Positions 3,233-39,729 of a stretch of DNA of 39,729 nt are shown one piece after another (position 1 is the first letter of the stretch; each line of letters starts with the position of its first letter). Both the position numbers and the translations under genes were made by a program. The stretch lies in UHGV virus genome UHGV-0230849; one strand, 5' to 3'. The notes beneath the pieces were generated by a model. The model searched no databases. It was not told the DNA's origin and saw only the letters and a program-made list of their open reading frames with translations. The DNA comes from a virus.

Positions 3233-4135
3233 TCAGTAGTTATGTACTGAAGGAGGTAATTCTTTATTCTTAAGTCTCATCCATGCGGAAAGATTCGTTG
3301 GTCCGTCTGGCTCATTGATATCAACATCTCGTGAGTGATTGATTAAAACGTCTCTCGCTATATCGATAATACGGGAGAACTCATAACCGCAGTCATGACA
3401 TCTGCCGGAATAGTTCGATTGAATTTGTTTCAGCGCCGGATACAGTTCGCGGAATAATGCCTGTGAGCGGTTGGCATAATCCCATAGCCATACAAGGCTG
3501 TTTGCTTCTTTTGCAGAAAGCTCGTTGGTTTTCTTCTCTTGTTTGCCGATGAACTCACCTTCAAGCACTACCCTGTGGATGTACTCTACGGCTTGCGGTA
3601 TCTGAGATGCATCAAGCTCTTCAATACTTTCCACATTGAAACGCTGATGAATCATTGCATAAGCTTCTGGGTACATTAGATGCTTTTTGCTGACTAGCAT
3701 ATTTACAGCATCACGAAGCGGAGTCCTGTCATCAACAGATGTTTTCTTACGTGCATTTTCTGCCTTTCCCTTTGTCCAGTAGTCATGCAGTACAGTAAAG
3801 CATTCTTCCTGGTACTGAATCAGTTTATCGCGGATGTCAGCTCGAACTTTCTCAGGGTTGATGCTGAACAGCCATCCATTTAACTTCTTCAAAGGAAGGC
3901 AGAGTAGCTTACGAAGCTTCCCATCAGCGGCAACCATATTCATATGAATACAGTTGAACTTATCTAGTTGTTTCATAAGTTTTTGTTGCTGAGTACCCCA
4001 ACTCATTCCAAGGTTTTCAACGATTGGCTTCATCGCAACGTATGCAACTCCGGCAGCCATGGCGGTGATAATTTGCTGACCGTTGAATGGTACGTAAGAG
4101 GTGTTCACTGCTTCTAAAATTGCTATACTATTCAT
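3233..4135 (-). CDS. ant: Antirepressor Ant (P22 immI); ORF extends to 4165 but homology suggests start at [10 protein letters not shown]
   Basis: 300-aa product directly downstream of arc in the arc-ant arrangement. Confidence 0.8.
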
Positions 4136-4203
4136 GTTGGTTTTTCTCCACGGATTTACTGACAACCGAAGCCCTGACTGTTCCCGCAGTTGGGGCTTCC
4201 ACT

Positions 4204-4707: not shown

Positions 4708-4722
4708 CGGTGGGTTTTATTA
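4697..4722. terminator. Bidirectional rho-independent terminator (end of mnt and end of convergent accessory operon)
   Basis: aacccacc-tgac-ggtgggtt hairpin flanked by A-run upstream and T-run downstream; mnt stop codon sits in the loop. Confidence 0.75.
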
Positions 4723-5139
4723 GTGCTTGTATAGGTTGAACTCTCTATCAAGCCATATAACAAAAAATGTCGATCCAAGACGATAACCAACCATGGCTTT
4801 CAAATCATCAAATCTAAAAGCCAAGAAATGATCTACGTCTTCCGTTATATGACTGGGGATACCTGCTTTAATTGCACCCCTTGCAATCTTCTCAAATCCA
4901 AGCTTATGCCTACCTTGCTGCTTAATCTCTGCCCATGTTAGTTGACTTAATCTGTATAATTTATCAGCTAAGCCAGCTTTCTCATCTTTTTGGCATTTCG
5001 TTATGCAGTGAGAGCTTTGGATGTAACAGAATGAAAATTTCGGTTTCTTTTGATCTGAATTCCCCCCTGACTGCGGCCCTAACTTTAACTTACCTGTAGA
5101 TTCAGCAGGGGGGATAATCCTTTTAGATTTTCTTGCCAT
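4720..5139 (-). CDS. Small protein (139 aa) coupled to the Panacea-domain gene; candidate toxin partner, C-terminus reminiscent of RelE/ParE-like toxins
   Basis: ATG at 5139 lies 4 nt after the upstream stop; C-terminal ...AMVGYRLGSTFFVIWLDREFNLYKH. Longer ORF-track start (5214) overlaps the upstream gene and is probably not used. Confidence 0.55.
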   Translation of the reverse strand: MARKSKRIIPPAESTGKLKLGPQSGGNSDQKKPKFSFCYIQSSHCITKCQKDEKAGLADKLYRLSQLTWAEIKQQGRHKLGFEKIARGAIKAGIPSHITEDVDHFLAFRFDDLKAMVGYRLGSTFFVIWLDREFNLYKH

Positions 5140-5143
5140 CTCG

Positions 5144-5587
5144 TTAGTTAATCCGAGTTGCAAAGTACTCTGCCATCTCCTTAGAGCTAATTTCAGAACC
5201 ACCAACACCCTCAATATAGTTTGATCTCCATGGTGACTCTTCGTGTGTCATGTTCCTCAGTTTCCAGGCAGAAAATTGCCCAAAAACATCCCAGACTTCT
5301 TCTAATAGCTCTAACTGTTCTTCGCTGAATTTTTCAGCATCAAAAGACTCTGGAGAAGGGATAGCGCCATTACCATATTGTTTATAACGGCGATAAAGCT
5401 CAGGGACAACAGGGCCATGCATCCAAGCTTCCATCTTATTCTGAAAAAGAGGCTCGCCAAGCAACGCCAATGAAAAACCCTGAGCATAGTAAACAAGCTT
5501 TTGTAATTTTAAATTAGAGATTGTGTCACCGCTATCCTCGTCACACCGCGACAGGAAGTAGTCGGCGACATCAAAACAAGTAAGCAT
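5144..5587 (-). CDS. Panacea-domain (DUF4065, SocA/GepA-like) protein, putative antitoxin
   Basis: CFDVADYFL...ISNLKLQKLVYYAQGFSLALLGEPLF...EAWMHGPVVPELYRRYKQYG matches the Panacea signature from memory; GGAGG 7 nt upstream of ATG at 5587. Confidence 0.75.
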   Translation of the reverse strand: MLTCFDVADYFLSRCDEDSGDTISNLKLQKLVYYAQGFSLALLGEPLFQNKMEAWMHGPVVPELYRRYKQYGNGAIPSPESFDAEKFSEEQLELLEEVWDVFGQFSAWKLRNMTHEESPWRSNYIEGVGGSEISSKEMAEYFATRIN

Positions 5588-29890: not shown

Positions 29891-30607
<717 letters not shown>

Positions 30608-30693: not shown

Positions 30694-31599
30694 ATGTCGA
30701 TTAACAGCAATAGCGAATCCCTGCATCAAATGCAGCTTTTCCCTGTAGTAGAGGTTGTTTCTGATGATATTCCTATGGGCGTTCTCAATGATGGAACTCC
30801 TTACCTAACTCTCTACGGTCTCGCAAAGTTATGCGGCATTGATGACACGCCACTGAGGGTGTTCACATCAAACTGGAACACAGAGAAAAACAAACCCAGA
30901 GGTCAAAAAGTAGCTGCGTATTTAGCTGAGAAAGGGTTTCATAACGTCGAAAAGCTATACACTCGCGTTTTAAATAGCTCAAACGTGGAAACTCATGCTT
31001 ATCCTGACTATGTTTGCATGGCTATCCTCCGTTACTACGCTCTAGATGCCACCAATTTTGATAGGTCAGTCGCAATAGGTAATTTTGTTCGCTTGGCTGA
31101 GTACACGCTTAAGCGAATGATTTATGAAAAGTCAAATTACAACCCAAATGCTTCAATAGATATCTCATTCGAGAACTATAGAGCAAGGATTAAGCTAAAC
31201 GATCAGATACCGACAACTCATTTTGCAGTATTCAGAGAGATAGCTGACATTGCCATGAATCTGATCGGAGGAGGATTCCCAATGGATGACACCACATCTT
31301 TGGATGGAAGTGTTGGAATTCACTGGGGAAAGTATTGGACAGCTAATGGGCTATCTGAGAAATTCGGGGAAAGGGTGCAGTACCCACATCTATTCCCCGA
31401 AAATTACAGGCAGTCAGCTGCAAATAAGCATATAACAGCTTGGATTTATCCTATTGAGGCACTTGGCGTGTTCAGAAAATGGCTACACGATAATTACGCA
31501 ATGGAAAAACTGCCAAATTACCTTGGGAACAAAAAGATTAGTAACGCCTCTGAGCTATTAGAGTCGATAAAAAAACCAGCACTCCCAAATAAGCATTGA
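30694..31599 (+). CDS. 301-aa protein at the rexAB position; candidate BstA-like abortive-infection protein with KilA-N/Bro-N-like N-terminus
   Basis: Same strand as cI, RBS AAGGAAAT, followed by a terminator; not RexA/RexB-like; N-terminal ...VVEVVSDDIPMGVLNDGTPYLTLYGLAKLCGIDDTPL... Confidence 0.5.
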   Translation: MSINSNSESLHQMQLFPVVEVVSDDIPMGVLNDGTPYLTLYGLAKLCGIDDTPLRVFTSNWNTEKNKPRGQKVAAYLAEKGFHNVEKLYTRVLNSSNVETHAYPDYVCMAILRYYALDATNFDRSVAIGNFVRLAEYTLKRMIYEKSNYNPNASIDISFENYRARIKLNDQIPTTHFAVFREIADIAMNLIGGGFPMDDTTSLDGSVGIHWGKYWTANGLSEKFGERVQYPHLFPENYRQSAANKHITAWIYPIEALGVFRKWLHDNYAMEKLPNYLGNKKISNASELLESIKKPALPNKH

Positions 31600-31786: not shown

Positions 31787-31857
31787 AACCATCTGCGGTG
31801 ATAAATTATCTCTGGCGGTGTTGACATGAATACCACTGGCGGTGATACTAAGCACAT
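31787..31857 (+). promoter_or_regulatory. OL: Left operator OL3-OL2-OL1 with promoter PL
   Basis: aaccatctgcggtgata, tatctctggcggtgttg, taccactggcggtgata; -35 TTGACA (31821-31826), -10 GATACT (31844-31849). Confidence 0.9.
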
Positions 31858-32077: not shown

Positions 32078-32404
32078 ATGGATGCACAAACACGCCGCCG
32101 CGAACGTCGCGCAGAGAAACAGGCTCAATGGAAAGCAGCAAATCCCCTGTTGGTTGGGGTAAGCGCAAAACCAGTTAACCGCCCTATTCTCTCGCTGAAT
32201 CGCAAACCGAAATCACGAGTAGAAAGCGCACTGAATCCGATAGACCTTACGGTGCTGGCTGAATACCACGAACAGATTGAAAGCAACCTGCAACGTATTG
32301 AGCGCAAGAATCAGCGCACATGGTACAGCAAGCCACGCAGTGAAATGGGTGTGACTTGTGTTGGTCGCCAGAAAATGAAATTAGGCAGCAAACCACTTAT
32401 TTGA
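32078..32404 (+). CDS. N: Antiterminator N (lambda-like N-terminus, divergent C-terminal ~25 aa)
   Basis: MDAQTRRRERRAEKQAQWKAANPLLVGVSAKPVNRPILSLNRKPKSRVESALNPIDLTVLAEYH... matches lambda N; C-terminus differs. Confidence 0.9.
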   Translation: MDAQTRRRERRAEKQAQWKAANPLLVGVSAKPVNRPILSLNRKPKSRVESALNPIDLTVLAEYHEQIESNLQRIERKNQRTWYSKPRSEMGVTCVGRQKMKLGSKPLI

Positions 32405-32412
32405 GGTGATAT

Positions 32413-32664
32413 ATGGAATTTCATGAAAGTGCGATTTGTGATTTTCGCGCTAACGCAAATTCAGTAAAACCACAGCCAATTGCAGTTCTTTTTAAAACAA
32501 TGGGTGCGTGGGCTGTTTTATGCTTCGCCGCTGATGACACTGACGCAAGAATGGCAATAGGCCAAGAGATGGAGATGGACCCGACAAACGATGAATTCAT
32601 AATTTATGGCGCTCCATCTAATTACTTACTTGATACCTGCAACATTTACAACAAGGCTGCCTGA
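32413..32664 (+). CDS. Hypothetical protein (83 aa) immediately downstream of N
   Basis: GAGGTGA RBS; at the ral/sieB position of lambda but not similar to Ral. Confidence 0.5.
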   Translation: MEFHESAICDFRANANSVKPQPIAVLFKTMGAWAVLCFAADDTDARMAIGQEMEMDPTNDEFIIYGAPSNYLLDTCNIYNKAA

Positions 32665-32800
32665 TGGTGGCCTTTATTTTTGGCATAAATAACAGAATAA
32701 ACACTGCACTGTGTATTCATTCCAACGAGTGAATACACGGAGCAATGTCGCTCTTAACTAAACAGGAGCCGACTTGTTCTGATTATTGGAAATCTTCTTT

Positions 32801-33454: not shown

Positions 33455-34353
33455 GCAATATCGTTGAATTCGTTAAACAGCAGGAGCAGTTATTCTGCGG
33501 AGCATTGACTGAACAGACGGTGACATGGGCTAAGGAAAGCCAGTTTGCAATTCAGTATTTCCAGAAAAATGATTACCTGGCTAAAACGGCACTGGCAAAT
33601 CCAACCAGCGCACAGAACGCCATCATCAATGTTGCGGCGATCGGTATCACCTTAAACCCGGCTAGCAAACTGGCTTATCTGGTTCCGCGCGACGGCATGG
33701 TTTGCCTTGATATCAGTTACATGGGGTTACTTCATCTTGCGCAATCGACAGGATCAATTAAGTGGGGGCAATGCAAACTGGTGTACTCAAACGACACCTA
33801 TGAATCAAATGGCCTTGATTCAGCACCAACCCACAAATACAACGCATTTGGTGAGCGAGGCTCTATTGTTGGTGGTTATTGTACGGTTAAAACAGCAGAT
33901 GGTGACTACCTGACTGAAGAAATGAGTCTGGCAGAAATTAAAGCTGTGGAAGCAACGAGCAAGGCAAAGAATGGACCGTGGAAAACATTCTGGGAAGAGA
34001 TGGCACGTAAAACAATAGTTAAACGCGCCAGCAAATACTGGCCTAAAGCCCAGCGACTGGATAATGCCATTCACCTGCTTAACGAAGATGAAGGTATGCA
34101 TCAGGAACCAGTTATGCCGCACAAATCAGAGGAAGATATCCGCGAAGATGAACGGAAACGCCAGCAGGAAATAATGGAAAAAGCACAACTTCTTTGTGAT
34201 GAAATGACTCAGGCTGAAAACATGGATGATTTGAAGAGATATTTTGCAGAAGCATATCGCCTGACATCTGGAATGAAATTGCAGCAGAACATACAAGCCA
34301 TTTACGCAGAATGCAAAGCGAAACTGGAGGTTGCCAGTGAGCAAACTGTATGA
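33451..34353 (+). CDS. recT: RecT-family single-strand annealing protein
   Basis: GPWKTFWEEMARKTIVKRASKYWP resembles the RecT signature (GPWVTHWEEMAKKTAIRRLFKYLP in Rac RecT). Confidence 0.8.
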   Translation: MSNIVEFVKQQEQLFCGALTEQTVTWAKESQFAIQYFQKNDYLAKTALANPTSAQNAIINVAAIGITLNPASKLAYLVPRDGMVCLDISYMGLLHLAQSTGSIKWGQCKLVYSNDTYESNGLDSAPTHKYNAFGERGSIVGGYCTVKTADGDYLTEEMSLAEIKAVEATSKAKNGPWKTFWEEMARKTIVKRASKYWPKAQRLDNAIHLLNEDEGMHQEPVMPHKSEEDIREDERKRQQEIMEKAQLLCDEMTQAENMDDLKRYFAEAYRLTSGMKLQQNIQAIYAECKAKLEVASEQTV

Positions 34354-34819
34354 AATTGCCAATGAATACGCAAAATTGATGGATTCAGATTTAGAGCCAG
34401 AGATGATTGCTGACACAATAGAAGGCATGGAAGGAGAATTTACCGATAAAATAGAGCAACTTCTTGCCATTATTAAAAATGAGTCTGGTTATGCTGAACG
34501 CCTCAAGGAAGAGGCAAAGTCACTGAATGAAAGAGCAGCAGTAATTCAAAATAAGATTGATAGCATTATGACGTATATAGCGTCATCGCTTGAAATGGTT
34601 GGAAAGAAAAAGATTCGAGCAGGTATTCACCAGGTAACAATCCGCAAACCGTCAGAAACTGTAGAAATCATCGACTCAAGCGCCCTTCCTCCAGAATACG
34701 TTGAGTTTGAAACAACAATTAAAGCCGACAAACTGGCAATCAAACACCAACTAAAAGCAGGAATAAATATCCCCGGCGCTCAACTCAAAGTTGGGAAACC
34801 TTCACTTCTTATCAAATAA
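34337..34819 (+). CDS. Gp157-like protein (Sipho_Gp157 family), GTG start
   Basis: MSKLYEIANEYAKLMDSD... with GGAGG 6 nt upstream of GTG; Gp157-type proteins commonly accompany RecT/Sak recombinases. Confidence 0.6.
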   Translation: MSKLYEIANEYAKLMDSDLEPEMIADTIEGMEGEFTDKIEQLLAIIKNESGYAERLKEEAKSLNERAAVIQNKIDSIMTYIASSLEMVGKKKIRAGIHQVTIRKPSETVEIIDSSALPPEYVEFETTIKADKLAIKHQLKAGINIPGAQLKVGKPSLLIK

Positions 34820-34830
34820 CGGTATCGCCT

Positions 34831-35145
34831 ATGAAAAAGAATCCATGGGAGAAATGGGAAGTCGATTTCTTACGCGAAGTAGCGGCGACAATGCCAGTTG
34901 AAGTTATCGCTGAAAAACTGGAAAGGACTGAAAAAGCAGTAATGGCGAAAGCAACAAGGATTGGCGCTGACATTGTTAGCCGACTTCGTGGAAGACGATG
35001 GACAAGAGCCGAAGTATCACTTTTCGGTAAGTTCTCCGCAGAAGAAATAGCAATTGCAACCTGCCGCTCAATTTATTCAGTAAGGGCTATGCGATACAAG
35101 CTAAAAAAACTCGATGAAGAAAGAGCAGGCATACGAATAAATTAA
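34831..35145 (+). CDS. Hypothetical protein (104 aa)
   Basis: Operon-oriented ORF; no family assigned. Confidence 0.5.
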
Positions 35146-35326: not shown

Positions 35327-35874
35327 AACAAATGTCACTAATTGAGATGGATGGTTTTCTGAAAGGTAAATGCATCCCACGAGATTTAAAGGTTAACGAA
35401 ACAAACGCTGAATATCTGGTGCGTAAGTTCGGTGAAGCGGAGGCCAAGATTTCGGCTCTGTCCGAAGACCAGCAGAGAGCGATTGAGTCAATTAAGCAGG
35501 CTGATGCGGCTGTTAAGTTGGCACACGAGAAGTTTTCGGCGCTGGCGGCGGAGAATGAACTGGCTCGTAAGGCAGTTCAGGCATTCTGCGATGTTGTTGG
35601 CGACAACACCGAGGTTATCGCTGAGGTGGTTGGGCGAGATGGCGTTCTGGTTATTTTGGAGGCCATGAAGGCAACAGGAAATATGCCAGCCACCGATGCT
35701 TTTCTGGCTGAAGTACGGGCGCAGGGCGTGGAGATGCTGGCAAAAAATCATCAGAGTATCGTCAATGCACTTAAGGGAGATTCTTTATTTTCTGATGGTG
35801 AATACCGACATGCAGCTATTGTTTCCGCAGCTGTATATTTCGCTGCAGAGCTTCGCAAAGGAGGCAACCAGTGA
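35323..35874 (+). CDS. Hypothetical protein (183 aa)
   Basis: Operon-oriented ORF, helical/Ala-rich; no family assigned. Confidence 0.5.
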
Positions 35875-36170
35875 CGGTATGTCTTATTGATAAACGTCGA
35901 CGTGGGCAACAAATACCATCTGTTGAAATGCCGAATCACACATGGTTTTGCGTACTTGATATCGATGGTATTGATACGTTGGTTGACACTCGTCATTACT
36001 GCGATACCGCAACAGCTACTCCGGCGAAAGCAAAGAAAATGGCTGCTCTGATAGAAAACTGGACTCCACCTGATGGTTGGTGCAATGGGAATGATCGAGA
36101 TTGGCATGAAAAAATGAAGGGCTATATCTGCGATTTCTTACGTAAATGCAACGGCTTCAGGGTGATGTGA
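35871..36170 (+). CDS. Hypothetical protein (99 aa, GTG start)
   Basis: AAGGAGG 7 nt upstream of GTG; GTGA overlap with previous stop. Confidence 0.45.
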   Translation: MTVCLIDKRRRGQQIPSVEMPNHTWFCVLDIDGIDTLVDTRHYCDTATATPAKAKKMAALIENWTPPDGWCNGNDRDWHEKMKGYICDFLRKCNGFRVM

Positions 36171-36171
36171 T

Positions 36172-36924
36172 ATGACCAAAATTAACTATCAGGCACTGCG
36201 TGAAGCGGCAGAAAAAGCAACGTGTGGTGTGTGGTCGCTCGAATATGGAGAGGAGAGATTTGATGCTGGTGATGCGCTAATTCATCGCGAGGCTGCTGGA
36301 TATATTCCCATTTGCAGAATTGAAGGAGCGCATCCTGAAAGCGGTTTCGATGAAGATTTCCAAATGGAACAGCAGGCCAATGCTGAATTCATCGCCGCAG
36401 CCAGTCCAGCTACCGTGCTGGCACTGCTGGATGAACGGGAAAGAAACCAGCAATACATAAAACGCCGCGATCAGGAGAACGAGGATATTGCGCTTACGGT
36501 TGGGAAGCTGCGCGTTGAGCTGGAAGGCAAAGACAGCAAAATAGCCAATCTTACCGCCGAACGCGATGCTCTTCGTGAAGGTGAGATGGGCGACGCTAGG
36601 CATAGCAACACACGGGCCGCAGCTGATATCTACTTCCAACTGGTCGAGGAGTGCGAAATTCCTGCTGGCGGATCTCTGGTCGAGTACGTTGACGATATGC
36701 GCGAGAAGCTGGAAGCCGCAGAGAAGCGCATAGCAGAGTTAGAAAGTGATTCTCAGGCACAAAAGTTAGTTGAAGCAATCATTGTTGCGATAGAAAACGA
36801 ACAGGAACGTCTTTTTGATGAAGATTACCTAATGGATTCGAAAGAATGCATTGACGTAATTCGTGAAGAAGTAAAGCGATGGAATGATTCCCGCACCGCT
36901 GGCATTCGCATCAAAGGAGAGTGA
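36172..36924 (+). CDS. Ead/Ea22-like protein
   Basis: N-terminal MTKINYQALREAAEKAT... typical of Ead/Ea22-like prophage proteins; acidic coiled-coil C-terminal part. Confidence 0.5.
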   Translation: MTKINYQALREAAEKATCGVWSLEYGEERFDAGDALIHREAAGYIPICRIEGAHPESGFDEDFQMEQQANAEFIAAASPATVLALLDERERNQQYIKRRDQENEDIALTVGKLRVELEGKDSKIANLTAERDALREGEMGDARHSNTRAAADIYFQLVEECEIPAGGSLVEYVDDMREKLEAAEKRIAELESDSQAQKLVEAIIVAIENEQERLFDEDYLMDSKECIDVIREEVKRWNDSRTAGIRIKGE

Positions 36925-36925
36925 T

Positions 36926-37522
36926 ATGAGCGCTATAACCAAAGAACGTATCGAATTATTCATTAAAAATCCGCTTGATAACGGGCTTACCCGTGGCGAA
37001 CAAATGGAACTGGCACGAATTGCACTGGCATCACTGGAACGCGAACAGATTCGCCACGAGCATGCCAAATGGTCTGACTCCACATTTGGCTGCGTTGGCC
37101 CCATTGGTCCGCTGAAACATCTCTCAAAAGAGGCACTGGAAGCCGAAGCCGAACCAGACGATCTTAGCGAGTGGGCTGATATGCAGTTTCTGTTGTGGGA
37201 TGCACAGCGCCGTGCTGGCATCAGCGATGCTGAAATTACCGCTGCTATGGAAGATAAATTGAAGATCAACATGGAGCGCCAGTGGCCTGAGCCAAAAGAT
37301 GGTGAGCCTCGCTTGCACATTAAAGAACCCGGCAACTCTCCGGTAATTCCGGATGGTTGGGTTATGGTGCCGAAGGAGTTAACCCCGGAAATGATGAGAG
37401 CCGTTCAGATTAGAAGTGAGCTTGGAGGGTATGCCACTTCCAATCTATCTGGTGCATACAATATGTTTTCTGAGTTCTGGAATGTTGCTGTCTCAGCTGC
37501 GCCTAAGGTGGATGATTTATGA
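36926..37522 (+). CDS. DUF550-like protein (MazG-like dATP/dGTP pyrophosphohydrolase-type N-terminal domain)
   Basis: FG...LKHLSKEALEAEAEPDDLSEWADMQFLLWDAQRRAGI...KLKINMERQW resembles DUF550 signature; start at MSAITK. Confidence 0.5.
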   Translation: MSAITKERIELFIKNPLDNGLTRGEQMELARIALASLEREQIRHEHAKWSDSTFGCVGPIGPLKHLSKEALEAEAEPDDLSEWADMQFLLWDAQRRAGISDAEITAAMEDKLKINMERQWPEPKDGEPRLHIKEPGNSPVIPDGWVMVPKELTPEMMRAVQIRSELGGYATSNLSGAYNMFSEFWNVAVSAAPKVDDL

Positions 37523-37821
37523 ATCTATATCGCTGCCCATTCTGTGGTTCCACTGTGCTTAACATCGGATACTCATTCAGTATCAGAGGGAAAATGCGCT
37601 ATGTGTCATGCAAATGTGGTGCCCAAGGACCAGAAAAACGAACTAAATCTGAAGCGATTTCTTCATGGAATAGTCGAATGAAAGTATGGGTTTATGATCC
37701 AGAAACAATATTAAACGTTGAAGAGCGCAGGAGAACGGAAGTCTATATTCATAACCTTAATGAAGATGGATTTACACCAGTGCTTGTAAAGGCTACTCCG
37801 CAGGAGGTTAACCGTGGCTAA
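37519..37821 (+). CDS. Lar-family restriction-alleviation protein (zinc-ribbon)
   Basis: MNLYRCPFCGS...CKCGAQGPEKRTKSEAISSWNSR matches the Lar-family pattern CPFCG...C.CGA.GP...A...WN.R. Confidence 0.65.
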   Translation: MNLYRCPFCGSTVLNIGYSFSIRGKMRYVSCKCGAQGPEKRTKSEAISSWNSRMKVWVYDPETILNVEERRRTEVYIHNLNEDGFTPVLVKATPQEVNRG

Positions 37822-37908
37822 CCTACAACTTGCCGTCAAAGGTGAATAACAATCCTCGCACTCGCGGGGATTTCTTTTATCTGAACTCGCTACGGCGGGT
37901 TTTGTTTT

Positions 37909-38220
37909 ATGGAGATGATTATGGCCTGTTCAACATTCAACCCTCTAACGTTACAGAAATACCAGCCAGACCCTGAAGATTTATGCTCACTGTGTGGCGG
38001 AAATCATGGTAAAGCCGCCATGATCGAATGTAAGGACAAAATCCACATATGTCTTAATTGCGTTGATGTCCTCGTTGATATCAAAAATGAAAGAGAAGAT
38101 AAAAAGCGTAGCGAGGCTATTCGCGCCTTAGATTCATGGATGCGAGATGGGTATAGTGCTGCGCAAATTTATGACTTAGCCATTTCAAAAGGCGAAATAC
38201 CAGGTGTGCGAATCGAATAA
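37909..38220 (+). CDS. Hypothetical Cys-rich protein (103 aa)
   Basis: CSLCGGNHG...CLNC pattern; function unknown. Confidence 0.45.
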   Translation: MEMIMACSTFNPLTLQKYQPDPEDLCSLCGGNHGKAAMIECKDKIHICLNCVDVLVDIKNEREDKKRSEAIRALDSWMRDGYSAAQIYDLAISKGEIPGVRIE

Positions 38221-38255
38221 GAAGCGCACTCAAGCATCTTTTGGAGAAATCACAA

Positions 38256-38423
38256 ATGCACTTCCGAGTCACAGGTGAATGGAATGGAGAGCCATTCAAC
38301 AGAGTTATCGAAGCCGAGAACATCAGCGACTGCTATGACCACTGGATGCTGTGGGCGCAGATAGCACATGCAGACGTAACCAATATTCGAATTGAAGAAC
38401 TGAAAGAACACCAAGCCGCCTGA
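38256..38423 (+). CDS. Hypothetical small protein (55 aa)
   Basis: GGAG 9 nt upstream of ATG at 38256; stop inside the following terminator. Confidence 0.4.
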   Translation: MHFRVTGEWNGEPFNRVIEAENISDCYDHWMLWAQIAHADVTNIRIEELKEHQAA

Positions 38424-38437
38424 TGGCGGTTTTTTCT
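38415..38437 (+). terminator. Rho-independent terminator upstream of xis
   Basis: gccgcc-tgat-ggcggt followed by tttttct. Confidence 0.75.
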
Positions 38438-38462
38438 TGCGTGTAATTGCGGAGACTTTGCG

Positions 38463-38681
38463 ATGTACTTGACACTTCAGGAGTGGAACGCACGCCAGCG
38501 ACGCCCAAGAAGCCTTGAAACAGTTCGTCGATGGGTGCGCGAATGCAGGATATTCCCTCCTCCGGTTAAGGATGGAAGAGAGTATCTGTTCCACGAATCA
38601 GCGGTAAAGGTTGACTTAAATCGACCAGTAACAGGTAGCCTTTTGAAGAGGATCAGAAATGGGAAGAAGGCGAAGTCATGA
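38463..38681 (+). CDS. xis: Excisionase Xis
   Basis: MYLTLQEWNARQRRPRSLETVRRWVRECRIFPPPVKDGREYLFHESAVKVDLNRP... matches lambda Xis. Confidence 0.97.
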   Translation: MYLTLQEWNARQRRPRSLETVRRWVRECRIFPPPVKDGREYLFHESAVKVDLNRPVTGSLLKRIRNGKKAKS

Positions 38682-39729
38682 GCGCCGGGATTTACCCCCT
38701 AACCTTTATATAAGAAACAATGGATATTACTGCTACAGGGACCCAAGGACGGGTAAAGAGTTTGGATTAGGCCGAGACAGGAGAATAGCAATCACTGAAG
38801 CTATACAGGCCAACATTGAGTTATTTTCAGGACACAAACACAAGCCTCTGACAGCGAGAATCAACAGTGATAATTCTGTTACGTTACATTCATGGCTTGA
38901 TCGCTACGAAAAAATCCTCGCCAGCAGAGGAATCAAGCAGAAGACACTCATAAATTACATGAGCAAAATTAAAGCAATAAGGAGGGGTCTGCCTGATGCT
39001 CCACTTGAAGACATCACCACAAAAGAAATTGCGGCAATGCTCAATGGATACATAGACGAAGGCAAGGCGGCGTCAGCCAAGTTAATCAGATCAACACTAA
39101 GCGATGCATTCCGAGAGGCAATAGCTGAAGGCCATATAACAACAAACCCGGTCTCTGCCACTCGCGCAGCAAAATCAGAGGTAAGGAGATCAAGACTTAC
39201 AGCTGACGAATACCTGAAAATTTATCAAGCAGCAGAATCATCACCATGTTGGCTAAGACTTGCAATGGAACTGGCTGTTGTTACCGGGCAGCGAGTTGGT
39301 GATTTATGCGAAATGAAGTGGTCTGATATCGTAGATGGATATCTTTATGTCGAGCAAAGCAAAACAGGCGTAAAAATTGCCATCCCTACAACATTGCATG
39401 TTGATGCTCTCGGGATATCAATGAAGGAAACACTTGATAAATGCAAAAAGATTCTTGGCGGAGAAACCATAATTGCATCTACTCGTCGTGAACCGCTTTC
39501 ATCCGGCACAGTATCAAGGTATTTTATGCGCGCACGAAAAGCATCAGGTCTTTCCTTCGAAGGGGATCCGCCAACCTTTCACGAGTTGCGCAGTTTGTCT
39601 GCAAGACTCTATGAGAAGCAGATAAGCGATAAATTTGCTCAACATCTTCTCGGGCATAAGTCGGACACCATGGCATCACAGTATCGTGATGACAGAGGCA
39701 GGGAGTGGGACAAAATTGAAATCAAATAA
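38659..39729 (+). CDS. int: Integrase Int (tyrosine recombinase)
   Basis: 356 aa, MGRRRSHERRDLPPNLYIRNNGYYCYRDPRTGKEFGLGRDRRIAITEAIQANIELF... near-identical to lambda Int; overlaps xis as in lambda. Confidence 0.97.
   Translation: MGRRRSHERRDLPPNLYIRNNGYYCYRDPRTGKEFGLGRDRRIAITEAIQANIELFSGHKHKPLTARINSDNSVTLHSWLDRYEKILASRGIKQKTLINYMSKIKAIRRGLPDAPLEDITTKEIAAMLNGYIDEGKAASAKLIRSTLSDAFREAIAEGHITTNPVSATRAAKSEVRRSRLTADEYLKIYQAAESSPCWLRLAMELAVVTGQRVGDLCEMKWSDIVDGYLYVEQSKTGVKIAIPTTLHVDALGISMKETLDKCKKILGGETIIASTRREPLSSGTVSRYFMRARKASGLSFEGDPPTFHELRSLSARLYEKQISDKFAQHLLGHKSDTMASQYRDDRGREWDKIEIK

Follow-up and report, generated by a model that had tools for sequence, protein, structure and literature searches.

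A mosaic block of six genes upstream of xis in phage genome UHGV-0230849 is probably an ordinary lambdoid accessory segment

The virus genome UHGV-0230849, analysed here as a single window of 39,729 nucleotides, carries six co-oriented genes at 35871-38423 on the plus strand, which the list of open reading frames (ORFs) places in tight packing between a recombination module on one side and xis and int on the other. A preliminary description saw in this block, together with an ORF next to N at 32413-32664, a counter-defence gene set. Our analysis would suggest an ordinary origin. We consider it probable, and hold this view with good confidence, that the block is the hypervariable xis-proximal accessory segment of an N-antiterminated pL operon, the region termed 'ea' in P22-like phages and 'exo-xis' in lambda, and that it is filled with known cassettes of mixed function. 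All six ORFs are real genes, with family scores far above chance. The Lar, DUF550 and Ead/Ea22 assignments made in the preliminary description hold, as the domain searches pass curated thresholds for all three, and the placement of the genes in the early-left operon upstream of xis was likewise confirmed. The genes are conserved. The features of the block and its right-hand edge are as follows.

35871..36170, plus strand: DUF7739 protein, 99 amino acids, homologue of Sf6 gene 22 (PF24881, 77.6 bits against a cutoff of 27)
36172..36924, plus strand: Ead/Ea22-like protein, 250 amino acids (PF13935, 103.9 bits against 27)
36926..37522 (ORF 36884-37522), plus strand: DUF550 (MazG-like) protein, 198 amino acids, three modules (PF04447, 142.8 bits against 23)
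37331..37519, plus strand: portable C-terminal module of 63 amino acids (GWVMVPKELTPEMMRAVQ...), without a Pfam model, 98% identical to the C-terminus of Sf6 gp21
37519..37821, plus strand: Lar-family zinc-ribbon protein, 100 amino acids, homologue of Sf6 gene 20 (PF14354, TIGR03655)
37851-37872 and 37883-37902, plus strand: two terminator-like hairpins with T-runs, from the terminator scan, in a lambda-derived intergenic stretch
37921..38220 (ORF 37909-38220), plus strand: Cys-rich protein of 99 amino acids, homologue of Sf6 gene 19 and 933W L0063 (phrog_3680, E 2.5e-69)
38256..38423 (ORF 38241-38423), plus strand: orthologue of lambda orf55 (lambdap35), 55 amino acids (phrog_676, E 7.5e-40)
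38413..38432, plus strand: terminator-like hairpin overlapping the orf55 stop codon, from the terminator scan, followed by a lambda-type pI (TTGC-N6-TTGC) and xis
38463..38681, plus strand: excisionase, the right-hand edge of the accessory region (PF07825, 139 bits)

Start codons were refined from the ribosome-binding sites and the first position of the profile alignments. On this basis the most likely starts are ATG 36926 for the DUF550 gene (198 amino acids, with the ribosome-binding site aaaggagag), ATG 37921 for the Cys-rich gene (99 amino acids) and ATG 38256 for the last gene (55 amino acids). The DUF7739 gene opens with a GTG that overlaps the upstream stop codon (GTGA at 35871) and is preceded by AAGGAGG. 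The next two junctions are both TGAtATG with a gap of one nucleotide, at 36168-36174 between the DUF7739 and Ea22-like genes and at 36922-36928 between the Ea22-like and DUF550 genes, and the DUF550 and Lar-like genes share an ATGA stop/start overlap at 37519. Because their stop and start codons overlap or lie one nucleotide apart, the first four genes are probably translationally coupled. Minus-strand ORFs in the block (114-168 amino acids) had no match in the PHROG search and were therefore treated as shadow ORFs. A repeat search of the block returned only short repeats related to coiled coils, a consensus scan found no promoter-like site inside it, and an NCBIfam search matched only Lar, together with weak ClpX matches.

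The mosaic origin of the block is clear from BLAST comparison with fetched relative loci, in which every segment is 94-100% identical in nucleotide sequence to known phages or E. coli prophages. Sf6 accounts for 35854-36441 (94.7%) and 37331-38222 (97.4%), an E. coli prophage for 36173-36737 (95.9%) and 36925-37919 (98.6%), and lambda for 37846-37919 (98.6%, the DNA between ea8.5 and orf55) and 38239-38700 (96.5%). The leftover piece, which encodes the C-terminus of the Ea22-like protein, is found at 100% identity in E. coli genomes. Of 5426 complete E. coli genomes, 3497 contain parts of the block, as do 551 phage records, and no single genome or record among them covers at least 80% of it; the many partial matches combined with this lack of broad cover point to cassette mosaicism. 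The junctions fall at gene and domain ends, and the gene for the Cys-rich protein, hereafter gp19-like, is inserted between two lambda-derived stretches that adjoin in lambda itself. In relatives the same slot holds other cargo, including DUF551, DUF4752, ASCH and HNH genes, a queuine tRNA-ribosyltransferase-like gene and EaA/EaD/EaE; truncated Lar and Ea22 pseudogenes are also known from relatives. The genes, their family labels and the mosaic arrangement can already be found in RefSeq, in the annotations of Sf6, of lambda and of thousands of E. coli prophages. It was an overstatement to describe the lambda ea/b genes as replaced: orf55 itself is present (96% amino acid identity), the Ea22-like protein keeps the lambda N-terminus and core, and the rest corresponds to the standard P22-like 'ea' set of Sf6 genes 19-22. 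The unassigned ORFs, which it was suggested may include novel anti-defence proteins, are not novel sequences; that anti-defence proteins are among them is possible.

The 198-residue DUF550 protein consists of a short N-terminal module, the PF04447 domain and a portable C-terminal module. The domain spans residues 42-137 (nucleotides 37049-37336) and aligns to model positions 1-96/97; the family, formerly DUF550, is now named dATP/dGTP pyrophosphohydrolase (MazG-like). Both MazG-type metal-binding motifs are intact, ExxE as E69-A-L-E72 and ExxD as E82-W-A-D85 when numbered from the start at 36926, and they align with EEIGE...EVAD of S-2L MazZ (PDB 7ODY). A PDB sequence search with the protein gave only a weak match to MazZ (E 0.43). 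The sole biochemistry for the family, cited in PMC12884076, is that of the DUF5664-DUF550 fusion of Acinetobacter phage SH-Ab 15497, a dATP/dGTP pyrophosphohydrolase that yields deoxynucleoside monophosphate and pyrophosphate. The protein encoded here would be predicted to act as a nucleotide pyrophosphohydrolase, hydrolysing (deoxy)nucleoside triphosphates or an alarmone-type nucleotide. Another MazG-like phage enzyme, Atd1, counters TIR-STING toxicity through depletion of (p)ppGpp (bioRxiv 10.1101/2022.06.09.495361), and provides a precedent for MazG-like anti-defence, not evidence for it in this block; DUF550 is a different MazG branch.

With the MazZ-type DUF550 proteins of Z-genome phages (SH-Ab 15497; MazZ of S-2L) the protein shares the full PF04447 domain and the ExxE...ExxD arrangement. 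It differs in that two portable lambdoid modules are attached to the domain, which is distant from MazZ. No PurZ, DatZ or DUF5664 partner was found among the ORFs of 300-500 amino acids, the only subset scanned with Pfam; these are P22-type virion proteins or lambdoid replication, immunity and recombination proteins, and the phages matched across the whole genome are ordinary P22-like and lambdoid ones. Since no PurZ- or DatZ-type partner is seen among the larger ORFs, the role of the DUF550 protein here would be one other than the Z-genome pathway.

The last 63 residues of the DUF550 protein are 98% identical to the C-terminus of the Ea22-like Sf6 gp21. We found this module (GWVMVPKELTPEMMRAVQIRSELGGYA...FWNVAV) in 368 representative clusters, nearly always at the C-terminus of proteins of 59-571 amino acids and sometimes duplicated, and no Pfam model matched it. 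Among 70 sampled carriers it is joined to DUF551 in seven, to DUF550 in four and to Ead_Ea22 in four, and the other 55 have no Pfam domain. As a weaker companion idea, the module may be a common docking domain that takes various early proteins to one target.

The Lar-like protein scores above the curated cutoffs of both models (PF14354, 36.0 against 28.6 bits; TIGR03655, 59.5 against 39.6 bits), and as judged from these profiles its membership of the Lar family is solid. Residues C6, C9, C31 and C33 and the motif EAIxxWNSR (EAISSWNSR) are kept in a small subfamily from Escherichia and Enterobacter. The founding member, Lar of the Rac prophage of E. coli K-12, is now annotated as RalR. It shares the zinc ribbon CPFCG...C.C...EA(L/I)xxWNxR with our protein at 34% identity over 53 residues, but is 64 amino acids long as opposed to 100, the protein here having a conserved C-terminal extension of 45 residues, and its second cysteine pair is CxxC where ours is CxC. 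According to Guo et al. (PMC4041452), RalR is a toxin with non-specific DNase activity that has the small RNA RalA as its antitoxin, and it does not inhibit restriction-modification. Its toxicity and DNase activity need positions 14, 37, 39, 49, 51 and 52, and the K52Q variant is inactive (PMC4041452). Residues C14, R49 and K52 align with serine in the Lar-like protein and only N51 is kept; positions 37 and 39 lie in a poorly aligned part. No RalA-like RNA was detected near the gene by Rfam, where sar was the sole match in the search, or by BLAST with ralA and rcbA, and a PDB sequence search with the protein gave nothing meaningful. With the activity of the founder disputed, the toxicity residues replaced by serine and no RalA, neither the anti-restriction nor the toxin reading of the Lar-like protein is established. 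It is possible that it modulates type I restriction.

The preliminary description had linked the block to the ORF adjacent to N, placed in the position of lambda ral.

32413..32664, plus strand: acidic ORF of 83 amino acids (ORF83), isoelectric point 4.2 (phrog_2471, E 1.4e-61)

This ORF does occupy the ral cassette, but it is not similar to Ral. It is nearly identical to lambda ral at the 3' end, through the last four codons (NKAA), the terminator and the DNA that follows, and a terminator-like hairpin at 32653-32674 carries the stop codon of the ORF in its loop. The protein gave no alignment with lambda Ral at E <= 100, and a Ral homologue was ruled out on this lack of similarity. A shared ral 3' end without similarity to Ral identifies ORF83 as a cassette replacement of ral. 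HK633, VT2-Sakai and other phages carry the ORF at 100% identity, in every case with the annotation 'hypothetical'. We also noticed that ORF83 and orf55, like lambda ral, end in ...(K/Q)AA, and that a GC-rich terminator hairpin (GCYGCCTGATGGYGG; positions 32640-32720 and 38400-38440) holds the TGA stop codon in its loop. The recombination junction between ORF83 and lambda ral lies exactly at this hairpin cassette.

The gp19-like protein belongs to a small family from Enterobacteriaceae (36 clusters) in which C22, C25, C44 and C47 are invariant, with the same spacing (3/19/3) as C14, C17, C36 and C39 of ClpX. The zinc-ribbon region covers residues 21-57 (nucleotides 37981-38091) and is followed by a helical tail of 40 residues. 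The ClpX zinc-finger family zf-C4_ClpX (PF06689) falls below its gathering threshold, at 15.7 against 27 bits (E 0.014), and in 20 of 22 relatives no other sub-threshold family ranks above it, with a best E of 0.0013. All five matches in a PDB profile search were ClpX N-domains, and hhalign gave a probability of 92.5% against a ClpX sequence entered by hand. The likeness to the N-terminal zinc-binding domain of ClpX (1OVX, 2DS5-8) comprises CSxCG and ICxxCVDxxxDI, at about 33% identity over 39 residues (ClpX 14-50). The protein differs from ClpX in having a helical tail in place of the AAA+ module, and the structure model does not confirm the domain: residues 11-40 were modelled by AF2 as helices from a shallow alignment, with a pLDDT of about 56. 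On balance we think it probable that the gp19-like protein has a ClpX-type C4 zinc ribbon. More speculatively, it might act as a free-standing mimic of the ClpX N-domain, competing or heterodimerising with it and diverting O-type initiator or SspB-delivered substrates from ClpXP, although we regard such a decoy role, which we infer purely from the likeness, as doubtful. If true, a ClpX mimic made early from pL would give a temperate phage a means of tuning host proteolysis that has not been described before; our literature search found no link between ClpX-type zinc fingers and gp19-like prophage proteins.

The gp19-like protein, with its four conserved cysteines, fits the label of small Cys-rich protein given in the preliminary description, but the 55-residue protein, which has a single cysteine, does not. 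The latter is identical to lambda NP_597778 in 53 of 55 residues (96%). For lambda Orf55 a published model gives a small alpha/beta protein that looks like phi29 p56 and T7 Gp2, which the authors call speculative (PMC8614690). The Ea22-like protein combines a conserved N-terminal domain, a coiled-coil core and a C-terminal domain that is not that of lambda. Its first 90 residues are close to Sf6 gp21 and 34 consecutive residues (85-118) are identical to the coiled-coil core of lambda Ea22, but past residue ~124 no alignment with lambda Ea22 was found, and the lambda-type dimeric C-terminal domain is not shared. A PDB sequence search with the protein gave no meaningful match. In lambda and Stx phages Ea22 has a pro-lysogenic effect (PMC7093339); it forms a tetramer, and its C-terminal domain is dimeric, as seen in the NMR structure (PMC10834534). 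The exo-xis region is also described as affecting phage development (PMC3824215). The DUF7739 protein has six cysteines, one of which is invariant in the family. A PDB sequence search with it gave nothing meaningful and comparison of its model with viral structures (BFVD) retrieved nothing but a piece of the protein itself; in structure the model comes closest to the small inhibitor and immunity proteins DMP12 and CdiI.

From its gene content the whole window is a temperate phage or prophage, a mosaic of P22-type virion genes (coat, scaffold and injectosome) and lambda-type N, xis and int; the early region is lambdoid, and the pL region matches HK97 and lambda-like phages. On the plus strand a cI-like repressor (29894-30607) is followed by pL, N, RecT, a Gp157/Gam-like gene, an ORF whose counterpart in phage Gally is annotated as Abc1-like, DUF2737, an ORF of 183 amino acids, the six genes, xis and int.

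31821..31849, plus strand: pL-type promoter, TTGACA-17-GATACT (consensus scan, 10 of 12 matches)
32078..32404, plus strand: ORF that we take, from its familiar N-terminus (MDAQTRRRERR...), to be a lambda-type N antiterminator

After the lambda paradigm, the pL-type promoter should drive the whole operon. The six genes would be read in one direction from pL with N antitermination, and the last two, gp19-like and orf55, would lie behind terminator-like hairpins that the N-modified polymerase reads through. The block itself would have arisen from cassettes that circulate among enterobacterial lambdoid phages and recombine at the borders of genes and domains. Its products would not form one system but a mixture of proteins that interact with the host early on: a MazG-like enzyme, a Lar-like zinc ribbon, an Ea22-type coiled-coil tetramer and three small proteins, at least one of them probably zinc-binding and similar to the ClpX N-domain.

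Several further observations concern the rest of the window. Upstream of the block the ORF at 34331-34819 (plus strand) resembles Siphovirus Gp157 and Mu Gam, and the basic ORF of 104 amino acids at 34831-35145 (plus strand) has a homologue in phage Gally annotated as anti-RecBCD Abc1-like; with RecT these form a recombination and anti-nuclease module. Between the cI-like repressor and pL, in the position of lambda rexAB, lies an ORF of 301 amino acids (30694-31599, plus strand) that matches the PADLOC model for BstA over residues 8-286 (E 1.3e-105, 351 bits) and has no Pfam match. BstA, encoded by prophages, is a known defence protein that acts by abortive infection and has a DNA element for self-immunity (PMC8585504). 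Further away, a sar antisense RNA (Rfam RF00262, 91.5 bits) at 4136-4203 (plus strand) adjoins an antirepressor-type ORF at 3233-4165 (minus strand) with P22_AR_N and P22_AR_C domains; together these make up a P22 immI region, and the early-left end of the same phage is lambda/HK97-like. An ORF of 164 amino acids at 4720-5214 (minus strand) has a weak PADLOC match to NsnC (E 9.5e-6, residues 56-160). The lambda-type integrase gene runs to the very end of the window (39729), which coincides with its stop codon, so that attP/attR and any flanking host DNA are not visible; in E. coli 3CM close relatives are integrated at the lambda att site, next to ybhC.

How far do these results bear out a dedicated counter-defence island? 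In such an island most of the six genes and ORF83 would each neutralise a host defence. Type I restriction-modification would be the target of the Lar-like protein, abortive infection that depends on nucleotide signalling or alarmones that of the MazG-like enzyme, and the small proteins would be inhibitors. The family-level Lar label survives as a point in its favour, as do the cassette in the ral slot, the early position downstream of recombination and anti-RecBCD-type genes, and the hypervariability of the slot, which is often seen at anti-defence loci. The structural neighbours of the DUF7739 model are inhibitor or immunity proteins, the p56- and Gp2-like model of lambda Orf55 (PMC8614690) would fit the same picture, and Atd1 does protect against TIR-STING toxicity (bioRxiv 10.1101/2022.06.09.495361). 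None of the proteins, however, matches an experimentally proven anti-defence protein, and a link to counter-defence, even at the level of the family, exists for no more than two of the six genes. Rac Lar/RalR was reported to be a DNase toxin that does not alleviate restriction (PMC4041452), the documented role of Ea22 is a different, pro-lysogenic one (PMC7093339), DUF550 belongs to another MazG branch than Atd1 and its known activity is on dATP/dGTP (PMC12884076), and ORF83 is not similar to Ral. Neither Lar, Ral, MazG nor Atd1 is mentioned in an anti-defence catalogue preprint that we consulted, and a hotspot-annotation preprint mentions neither Lar, lambda, Ea22 nor P22. Taken together, we consider a dedicated island unlikely.

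It is improbable, in our view, that the block instead serves the lysogen as defence or toxin-antitoxin cargo, with the Lar-like protein as a RalR-type DNase toxin and the MazG-like enzyme depleting deoxynucleoside triphosphates (dNTPs) against superinfecting phages. Depletion of dNTPs is a known defence logic, and the prophage carries a bona fide defence gene, BstA, elsewhere. However, PADLOC models run against all ORFs of the block and ORF83 gave nothing better than E 0.0099, and the genes lie in a repressed pL operon, not in a lysogen-expressed position, with no promoter-like site of their own. RalR does set a precedent as a DNase toxin with a small RNA antitoxin (PMC4041452), but the serines at three of its toxicity positions and the missing RalA argue against the same activity here. 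Very improbable, finally, is that the block is largely dispensable passenger DNA, kept as a recombination substrate through its conserved gene ends, with most ORFs lacking a selected function. Mosaicism this extreme, its junctions falling where genes and domains end, would be expected of such DNA, the ea/exo-xis genes of lambda and P22 are non-essential, and pseudogenes of Lar and Ea22 are found in relatives. Yet the ORFs are intact, tightly packed and equipped with ribosome-binding sites, the families are conserved to 50-60% protein identity across genera with invariant cysteines and motif residues, and the DUF550 catalytic motif is preserved.

The accessory segment of mixed function therefore remains our preferred explanation, and some points weigh against it. 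Four of the six proteins are without an experimentally characterised close homologue, so the impression of a mixed bag partly reflects ignorance. The anti-RecBCD-type neighbours (annotated as Abc1-like and Gam-like in phage Gally), the Lar label and the Atd1 precedent are compatible with a larger counter-defence role. Expression from pL and the functions of the block are predictions from sequence, and the promoter and terminator calls are consensus matches.

The practical value of the analysis lies in a cleaner annotation, with corrected starts, the DUF550 protein as a named MazG-like pyrophosphohydrolase, a 'Lar' label that carries less functional weight than its name implies, and a ral-slot ORF that is a cassette replacement and not Ral. 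Three modest leads also emerge: the ClpX-type zinc ribbon of the gp19 family, the widespread 63-residue module and a non-Z-genome role of DUF550 enzymes. They are possibly worth following, given that a large share of E. coli genomes, and Stx phages too, encode these proteins.

The closest parallel to the block is found in Sf6, where genes 22-21-20-19 encode the DUF7739, Ea22-like, Lar-like and Cys-rich proteins in the same order and orientation and in the same slot between recombination and excision genes; other P22-like 'ea' regions of this kind are hkaD-hkaH of HK620 and that of CUS-3. Sf6 differs in having no DUF550 gene, its Ea22-like gp21 bearing the 63-residue module directly and overlapping the Lar gene, and in its TorI-type xis and different integrase, where the element here has lambda orf55-xis-int. 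Lambda's exo-xis region is in turn similar in orf55, the intergenic DNA, pI/xis, the N-terminus and coiled-coil core of Ea22 and the position in the operon. Lambda ea8.5, orf61, orf63 and orf60a are without counterpart here and the C-terminal domain of Ea22 also differs, whereas the DUF7739, DUF550, Lar-like and ClpX-zinc-ribbon-like genes are without counterpart in lambda.

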